Source: Escherichia coli
GTDB taxonomy: Bacteria > Pseudomonadota > Gammaproteobacteria > Enterobacterales > Enterobacteriaceae
Strand: one strand, 5' to 3'
Assembly: GCF_016026235.1 (NCBI RefSeq)
Contig: NZ_CP065613.1
Length of the DNA: 64,000 nt
The position numbers were made by a program, and so were the translations under genes. The notes under the pieces are model-generated. The model searched no databases. It worked only from the letters and a program-made list of their open reading frames with translations, and was not told where the DNA came from. Of this stretch, positions 10,331 through 11,780 are shown piece after piece (position 1 is the first letter of the stretch; every line of letters begins with the position of its first letter).

Positions 10331-10342
10331 GACACTAAGGTC
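10331..10342. repeat. IS4 target-site duplication, left copy (GACACTAAGGTC)
   Basis: Identical 12-mer at 11769..11780 directly flanking the IS4 termini. Confidence 0.85.
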
Positions 10343-11768
10343 TAATGCCGATCAGTTAAGGATCAGTTGACCGATCCAGTGGCTGTGTAAGAATCCGGAA
10401 ACGCTCACTTGTTTCCGGATTTTTTTATGCACATTGGACAGGCTCTTGATCTGGTATCCCGTTACGATTCTCTGCGTAACCCACTGACTTCTCTGGGGGA
10501 TTACCTCGACCCCGAACTCATCTCTCGTTGCCTTGCCGAATCAGGTACTGTAACGCTACGCAAGCGCCGTCTTCCCCTCGAAATGATGGTCTGGTGTATT
10601 GTTGGCATGGCGCTTGAGCGTAAAGAACCTCTTCACCAGATTGTGAATCGCCTGGACATCATGCTGCCGGGCAATCGCCCCTTCGTTGCCCCCAGTGCCG
10701 TTATTCAGGCCCGCCAGCGCCTGGGAAGTGAGGCTGTCCGCCGCGTGTTCACGAAAACAGCGCAGCTCTGGCATAACGCCACGCCGCATCCGCACTGGTG
10801 CGGCCTGACCCTGCTGGCCATCGATGGTGTGTTCTGGCGCACACCGGATACACCAGAGAACGATGCAGCCTTCCCCCGCCAGACACATGCCGGGAACCCG
10901 GCGCTCTACCCGCAGGTCAAAATGGTCTGCCAGATGGAACTGACCAGCCATCTGCTGACGGCTGCAGCCTTCGGCACGATGAAGAACAGCGAAAATGAGC
11001 TTGCTGAGCAACTTATAGAACAAACCGGCGATAACACTCTGACGTTAATGGATAAAGGTTATTACTCACTGGGACTGTTAAATGCCTGGAGCCTGGCGGG
11101 AGAACACCGCCACTGGATGATACCTCTCAGAAAGGGAGCGCAATATGAAGAGCTCAGAAAACTGGGTAAAGGCGATCATCTGGTGAAGCTGAAAACCAGC
11201 CCGCAGGCACGAAAAAAGTGGCCGGGACTGGGAAATGAAGTGACAGCCCGCCTGCTGACCGTGACGCGCAAAGGAAAAGTCTGCCATCTGCTGACGTCGA
11301 TGACGGACGCCATGCGCTTCCCCGGAGGAGAAATGGCGGATCTGTACAGTCATCGCTGGGAAATCGAACTGGGATACAGGGAGATAAAACAGACGATGCA
11401 ACTGAGCAGGCTGACGCTGAGAAGTAAAAAGCCGGAGCTTGTGGAGCAAGAGCTGTGGGGTGTCTTACTGGCTTATAATCTGGTGAGATATCAGATGATT
11501 AAAATGGCGGAACATCTGAAAGGTTACTGGCCGAATCAACTGAGTTTCTCAGAATCATGCGGAATGGTGATGAGAATGCTGATGACATTGCAGGGCGCTT
11601 CACCGGGACGTATACCGGAGCTGATGCGCGATCTTGCAAGTATGGGACAACTTGTGAAATTACCGACGAGAAGGGGAAGGGCCTTCCCGAGAGTGGTAAA
11701 GGAGAGGCCCTGGAAATACCCCACAGCCCCGAAAAAGAGCCAGTCAGTTGCTTAACTGACTGGCATTA
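10343..11768 (+). mobile_element. IS4, 1426 bp
   Basis: Terminal inverted repeats TAATGCC.../...GGCATTA, single transposase gene, 12-bp direct repeats outside. Confidence 0.9.
10427..11755 (+). CDS. IS4 transposase
   Basis: 442-aa product from [20 protein letters not shown]..., matching the recalled IS4 transposase. Confidence 0.9.
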
Positions 11769-11780
11769 GACACTAAGGTC
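11769..11780. repeat. IS4 target-site duplication, right copy (GACACTAAGGTC)
   Basis: See left copy; removing IS4 and one repeat yields a hairpin CCCGAC-ACTAAG-GTCGGG followed by a T-rich tract. Confidence 0.85.

Follow-up and report, generated by a model that had tools for sequence, protein, structure and literature searches.

How did a transposable element come to lie between the repressor gene and the leftward promoter of a lambdoid prophage, and what did its arrival change for the genes on either side? The question is raised by a 64-kb stretch of Escherichia coli DNA (contig NZ_CP065613.1; this whole stretch is called the window below), in which a copy of the insertion sequence IS4 stands between the repressor gene cI and the leftward operators (oL), the promoter pL and the antiterminator gene N. 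We consider it highly likely that IS4 arrived by standard cut-and-paste insertion into a target of the kind that it prefers, namely the hairpin that is best read as the terminator of cI, and that the outcome was near-neutral. The element is a known insertion sequence whose site matches its known preference, the prophage around it is defective, and the behaviour that it illustrates is already known.

A complete IS4 and its target duplication

The element occupies 10343-11768 on the plus strand and is a complete, ordinary IS4 in its size of 1426 bp and in its near-identity to other copies. Its termini, TAATGCCGATCAGTTAAG at 10343-10360 and TAATGCCAGTCAGTTAAG (given as the reverse complement) at 11751-11768, start with TAATGCC and form 18-bp imperfect inverted repeats that are alike at 16 of 18 positions. 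The transposase gene is a single uninterrupted reading frame of 442 codons on the plus strand (ATG at 10427, stop at 11755), and its product matches the Pfam families Nterm_IS4 (E = 3e-33) and DDE_Tnp_1 (E = 8e-32), with the Y(2)R(3)E(6)K signature in residues 307-321. The first-pass annotation of this DNA, made from the letters alone, had called the element a complete IS4, and its length, inverted repeats, intact reading frame and identity to annotated copies all bear this out.

In nucleotide sequence the element is 100% identical to copies annotated as 'IS4-like element IS4 family transposase' in several E. coli strains, and the identical allele is present in E. coli CFSAN029787, RMDEC332, RMDEC364 and VL46, where its carriers are ~290-kb plasmids as well as chromosomes. 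It is 6 nucleotides apart from the common insG allele (the insG-type copies at loci L003-L005), and its transposase differs from the commonest E. coli InsG allele at 4 amino acids; identity to annotated IS4 copies is 99.6-100%, with no difference in structure. With the IS4 of E. coli (insG; ISfinder IS4, the type element of the IS4 family) it shares the length, the terminal repeats and the single 442-amino-acid DDE/YREK transposase just described, together with a target duplication of 11-13 bp and A-rich and T-rich target arms (PMC2266710). The presence of identical multicopy alleles in several E. coli strains suggests that this allele may have transposed recently.

Directly abutting the element on both sides is a 12-mer, GACACTAAGGTC, which occurs in exactly two copies in the window, at 10331-10342 and at 11769-11780 on the plus strand, where the number expected by chance is 0. 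The two copies form a perfect target-site duplication of 12 bp, within the 11-13 bp characteristic of IS4 and the 11-14 bp found at other IS4 copies. The interval 10331-11780 is, to the base, these two copies plus IS4, just as had been claimed, and renewed inspection of the features on which that claim depended found both the duplicated 12-mer and the terminal inverted repeats of IS4 in place. Excising IS4 and one repeat copy in silico yields AAAACCCGACACTAAGGTCGGGTT, which aligns without gaps to IS4-free relatives, identically in E. coli S163-2 and with one substitution, in the loop, in phage Dewey. The comparison with IS4-free copies of the prophage, which the first-pass annotation had proposed as a check, thus recovers a contiguous empty site in which the 12-mer is single, as GACACTAAGGTC in S163-2 and as GACGCTAAGGTC in Dewey; contiguous counterparts of the restored site, ~96% identical to it, are present in 184 E. 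coli genomes and in the records of four phages (Dewey, Louie, vB_EcoP-720R6 and vB_EcoP-683R2).

As insertion sequence copies often cause misassembly, the arrangement might be an assembly artefact, or a chance repeat might surround an IS4 that was placed by recombination instead of transposition. Such an origin is at odds with a 12-mer that abuts IS4 exactly and with an excision product, after removal of IS4 and one copy, that equals the sequence of the relatives. The same cI-IS4 junction is absent from all 5,426 complete E. coli genomes, in which there are 5,478 IS4 places, and from every IMG/VR contig with an IS4, and an exact-protein look-up of cI led to the junction in two NCBI draft assemblies only. 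In GCA_050054195.1 the cI-side junction is read through, and in GCA_012807895.1 the contig breaks exactly at the junction, so that we regard an artefact as extremely improbable and effectively refuted. Since the junction is present in an independent assembly, the insertion is real and common to a lineage, for which the cI-IS4 junction could be used as a marker.

The putative cI terminator as an IS4 target

Read along the minus strand, the immunity region has the lambdoid order cI, a split hairpin with IS4, oL3 to oL1, pL, nutL and N, and cro, cII, O and P follow in the rightward direction. Between the right end of IS4 and the cI stop codon there are 47 bp, and between its left end and the putative oL3 there are 44 bp; the gene order and the 1438 bp gained agree with the earlier description of cI as separated from oL by 1.4 kb, just beyond the pL operators. 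To the left of the insertion pL, oL, nutL and N are unchanged, to the right cI, pRM, oR and cro are unchanged, and the insertion breaks up no gene and, the putative cI terminator aside, no control element that could be recognised. In IS4-free relatives of the same immunity type, cI leads directly to the hairpin site, oL and N with no rexAB, and a relative with the same N and another immunity module has rexA and rexB between cI and N; as a statement about position, the earlier remark that IS4 occupies the rexAB slot is correct. Lambda, in which the order is cI-rexA-rexB-t_imm-oL, shares with this prophage the succession N, nutL, pL/oL, slot, cI, oR and cro. N, nutL and the CI C-terminal domain are lambda-like, and on the cI strand both have a terminator, here a putative one, shortly before oL. 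Unlike lambda, this immunity type is without rexAB and has its terminator directly after cI. What now fills the slot is a transposon, not an exclusion module, and it is transcribed opposite to cI; rexAB, by contrast, shares a transcript with cI.

The empty site, read on the cI strand, has an 8-bp stem (AACCCGAC/GTCGGGTT) with 5 GC pairs, a loop of 6 nt and then UUUUCUUUUU. Its predicted fold has an energy of -12.1 kcal/mol (z = -2.9), a value that 0 of 200 shuffled sequences reached. The hairpin lies 31 nt past the cI stop codon and 28-44 bp before the putative oL3, and has the GC-rich stem-loop, the U-tract and the place 3' of a gene that mark an intrinsic terminator; in the IS4-free phage Dewey a terminator scan marks the site as terminator-like on both strands. 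The suggestion that removal of IS4 leaves a hairpin and T-rich tract resembling a cI terminator is upheld by the fold and by the Dewey scan, and the most fitting reading of this predicted structure is a terminator for cI that corresponds to lambda t_imm. Its parts now flank the insertion. The outer half is at 10318-10330 on the minus strand (AAAAAGAAAA, which is UUUUCUUUUU on the cI strand, with the outer stem arm AACCC), and the inner stem arm is at 11781-11785 on the same strand (GGGTT on the plus strand, AACCC on the cI strand). Because the outer stem arms are now 1438 bp apart, the original cI terminator is destroyed. At the left junction (10329-10351, minus strand) the IS4 end TCGGCATTA and the 12-mer make up a weak hybrid hairpin directly before the retained UUUUCUUUUU tract, and motifs of GGCAT or GCC, resembling the IS4 terminus, occur in several other IS4 duplications.

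The location of the insertion in a hairpin is the expected outcome of IS4's own target preference. We characterized that preference from 57 unique IS4 left-end junctions in E. coli, seven other genera (Photorhabdus, Photobacterium, Kosakonia, Rosenbergiella, Rahnella, Pectobacterium and Buttiauxella) and IMG/VR prophage contigs. The flanks of these junctions have A at positions -20 to -17 in 68-86%, C or G at -14 to -12, and G at -4, -3 and -1, and the 14 sites that were fully reconstructed show the symmetric pattern AAAA-N3-[11-14 bp duplication]-N3-TTTT. By our own reading of dot-bracket folds, ~8-11 of the 14 are hairpins centred on the duplication. IS4 sites also fall preferentially in non-coding DNA: the stop-free run next to a site has a median length of 56 codons, compared with 155 codons for positions picked at random from these loci (p = 2e-9). 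The site at cI reads AAAA-CCC-GACACTAAGGTC-GGG-TTAT and thus has the A-rich and T-rich arms; a position weight matrix built from 55 junctions without this site, applied to both strands of the IS-free window, ranked it 10th among 125,078 positions. Three unrelated copies of IS4 in E. coli (3' of hflC, in the ldtD-mukB gap and in the dacB-obgE gap) sit mid-palindrome in sites of the AAAAGAAAA-ccc...ggg-TT type with duplications of 11-13 bp, and the arm specificity of IS4 insertion has been described (PMC2266710). It is by this target rule that IS4 landed 44 bp from the operators of the switch without touching coding or regulatory elements, and the locus offers a clean natural example of a rule that selects A/T-flanked terminator hairpins.

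The matrix scored the site at 12.7 bits in the observed orientation and at 7.3 bits in the opposite one; the target pattern is roughly symmetric, and the observed orientation at cI is simply the higher-scoring of the two. A strict bias of IS4 orientation relative to the terminator was ruled out by one site, L044, which has its T-tract on the transposase strand. The classical IS4 target consensus, reportedly that of Mayaux et al. in 1984, is said to be AAA-N20-TTT, and the pattern derived from our junctions agrees with it. Elements that target terminators or palindromes are known elsewhere: IS1397 and ISKpn1 enter repetitive extragenic palindromic (REP) sequences and bacterial interspersed mosaic elements (BIMEs), and class C bacterial group II introns insert downstream of intrinsic terminators. 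Like IS4, these elements insert in or beside intergenic hairpins with minimal disruption of genes. IS4 differs from them as a DDE cut-and-paste element that has no homology or mechanism in common with them and that appears to read A/T-rich arms at a fixed spacing.

In our explanation, IS4 chooses sites of the AAAA-N3-[11-14 bp, duplicated]-N3-TTTT form, and these are very often A/T-flanked GC hairpins, which are bidirectional intrinsic terminators in intergenic DNA. The putative cI terminator of this lambdoid immunity region, which lacks rexAB, fits the pattern. Staggered cuts 12 bp apart around the centre of the hairpin duplicated its loop together with the inner part of the stem and parted the outer arms, and leftward cI transcripts now run ~40 nt on into an 11-bp hairpin and U-run supplied by IS4, which probably replaces the terminator that was lost.

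A further site of this kind stands unoccupied in the window, at 42406-42432 on the minus strand. It is a AATAAAAAAGG-CACCATTTCTGGTG-CC hairpin, among the top sites of the matrix scan, and sits between a tail J-like gene (38887-42384) and the gene that follows (42454-43053). In two IMG/VR contigs (L042 and L048) an identical site holds an IS4-like element of 1422-1423 bp with a 14-bp duplication. When genome contigs were scanned for the left end of IS4, the 34 loci obtained (L006-L039) were from other genera and none was from E. coli or Shigella. Exact IS4 left ends are multicopy in draft assemblies of Kosakonia oryziphila (16 junctions), Pectobacterium carotovorum, Buttiauxella, Rosenbergiella, Photorhabdus and Photobacterium, and one is found on a 265-bp contig labelled Methylobacterium mesophilicum, which may be contamination.

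Transcription and repression around the insertion

The terminator that IS4 split has probably been replaced by one that it carries. At its right end, transcripts from cI would meet an inward-facing, terminator-like hairpin (11730-11764, minus strand), identified by a terminator scan, as an inverted repeat and by RNA folding, in which a perfect 11-bp stem, GCCAGTCAGTT/AACTGACTGGC (11764-11739), is followed by TCTTTTT. This hairpin is the top match of the terminator scan and probably acts as a substitute terminator for cI, in which case the end of the cI mRNA is probably shifted by ~40 nt beyond its former place. At the left end, just 5' of the transposase ATG, a hairpin followed by U7 (10389-10426, plus strand; an inverted repeat with a 15-bp stem in the RNA fold) would halt transcription coming from the left. 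With an inward-facing hairpin and U-run at each end, IS4 looks insulated from incoming transcription on both sides.

These predictions allow a more general and more tentative idea, which we hold to be possible and no better than doubtful: IS4 may be a 'terminator-swapping' element that targets bidirectional terminators and whose inward hairpins and U-runs re-terminate the transcripts that flank it. If this were true, IS4 insertions would be transcriptionally near-silent, the expression of cI here would stay normal, and a lambda-like oL-oR spacing of ~2.3 kb would have been restored incidentally. That IS4 may target terminators and bring replacements is suggested by the data, short of proof, and is the one mildly new angle.

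We conclude that the insertion is probably close to neutral and has little effect. Several points weigh against insertion into a preferred target with near-neutral effect. The 57 junctions are those with an exact match to a single IS4 end, and some of them are phylogenetically related; the base at position -1 of the site is C, where the target profile usually has G; and neutrality is read from the sequence, the substitute terminator and the operators being consensus and fold predictions. Moreover, the right-end hairpin has no T-run on the plus strand, and transposase transcripts could read through it antisense to cI. The same missing T-run, together with a transposase gene that converges on cI and an inward-facing promoter-like sequence (TTGACC-16-AAGAAT at 10367-10394), lends some support to an account in which IS4 drives outward transcription, either as antisense read-through that lowers the amount of repressor or from a hybrid promoter at the left end that fires into oL, pL and N. 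A consensus scan found no outward-facing promoter at either end of IS4, and the transposase gene points at cI, away from N. Transcripts from the transposase promoter would immediately encounter the strong hairpin and U7, and any leftward transcripts exiting IS4 would meet the hybrid hairpin and then the UUUUCUUUUU tract that is still present (10351-10318). In general, IS4 expresses its transposase at a low level. We judge outward transcription of consequence for the neighbouring genes to be quite improbable.

The insertion also changes the distance between the operators, which are putative sites defined by a motif, AGTAC-N5-GTACT, common to the oL region (three sites) and the cI-cro intergenic region (three sites). 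On the left these are oL1 (10226-10240), oL2 (10251-10265) and oL3 (10284-10298), and on the right oR3 (12485-12499), oR2 (12511-12525) and oR1 (12544-12558). By lengthening the oL-oR distance from ~0.88 to ~2.3 kb, IS4 could have altered looping by CI octamers and with it pRM autoregulation and the stability of the lysogen. In favour of this, the C-terminal, oligomerisation domain of CI is nearly identical to that of lambda CI; the N-terminal DNA-binding domain is different. With IS4 in place the centres of the putative oL1 and oR1 are 2318 bp apart, and with IS4 removed 880 bp; the wild-type lambda separation, at which looping has been demonstrated, is 2317 bp (PMC2685085). Given looping at that distance in lambda and a lambda-like oligomerisation domain here, little effect of the new spacing is to be expected; since looping by lambda CI is efficient over 2.3 kb, it should still be possible across the longer interval. 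The operators on which the measurement depends are themselves predicted, and the prophage is already defective, with no obvious selection on its switch. We therefore regard a rewired immunity switch as unlikely. A functional meaning for the agreement between 2318 and 2317 bp was set aside as probably coincidental, the near-equal spacing just reflecting that IS4 (1.44 kb; 1438 bp with its duplication) is about the size of rexAB.

The immunity genes and sites themselves are of lambdoid type. The repressor gene cI (11816-12511, minus strand) matches Pfam HTH_3 and Peptidase_S24 and PDB entry 3bdn (E = 8e-97), and in truth it probably begins at 12475 or 12469. The cro-like gene (12587-12802, plus strand) matches HTH_3. 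A consensus scan placed a pL-like promoter at 10224-10252 on the minus strand (TTGACT, -35 at 10252; 17-nt spacer; TACTAT, -10 at 10224), and this site is also present in the IS4-free phage Dewey. Downstream of pL, the segment at 10153-10183 on the minus strand, which by analogy with lambda we take to be nutL, contains by direct reading boxB, GCCCTGAAGAAGGGC, at 10167-10153 and a boxA-like sequence, TGCTCTTAAAAATTAA. The region equals the lambda sequence in primer phageEcoRI (PMC2685085), save for a G-to-A change in boxA. The lambda-type antiterminator N (9716-10042, minus strand), also downstream of pL, is an open reading frame that matches Pfam N36 (E = 1.5e-26).

The state of the host prophage

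The prophage that received IS4 is already degraded, with a frameshift in int, an IS600 in cIII and ipaH cargo. The lambda-type int gene (877-1950, minus strand) has a 1-bp deletion near 1617 that leaves it in two frames, by comparison with an intact int (356 amino acids) that is 99.7% identical, and the prophage is probably locked in. IS600, an IS3-family element with two overlapping reading frames on the minus strand, lies at 7950-9213 in the pL operon, between cIII and kil, and interrupts the last codons of cIII: the cIII reading frame (9211-9363) ends in ...GSNTY, and the remaining codons, YGYPD, are across IS600 near 7935-7950. With int frameshifted and cIII interrupted, the prophage is crippled, and selection on its switch is expected to be weak for that reason. 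The practical value of the IS4 insertion is small; it adds to the IS-driven changes in a prophage that carries ipaH and is in decay. In a relative, FDAARGOS_943, IS600 lies elsewhere, in antA.

At the right end of the prophage, an ipaH-type gene (45283-47046, minus strand) encodes LRR_TTSS, LRR and NEL E3-ligase domains and has as neighbours a DUF3300 gene (47507-48595, probably yacH) and acnB (48797-51547). An ipaH gene is typical prophage cargo of Shigella and enteroinvasive E. coli, and ipaH, IS600 and the IS4 allele point to a genome of the Shigella or enteroinvasive E. coli type. The flanks of the window are contiguous in no complete E. coli genome.

A search against Rfam gave no match in or beside the cI hairpin or IS4 and one real match, in the cIII leader: Lambda_thermo, the cIII thermoregulator, at 9318-9376 on the minus strand (88.5 bits), which is intact upstream of the cIII gene damaged by IS600. 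The late-regulatory/lysis region of the prophage carries two phage-borne tRNA genes, tRNA-Asn(GTT) and tRNA-Thr(TGT), at 21163-21318 on the plus strand.
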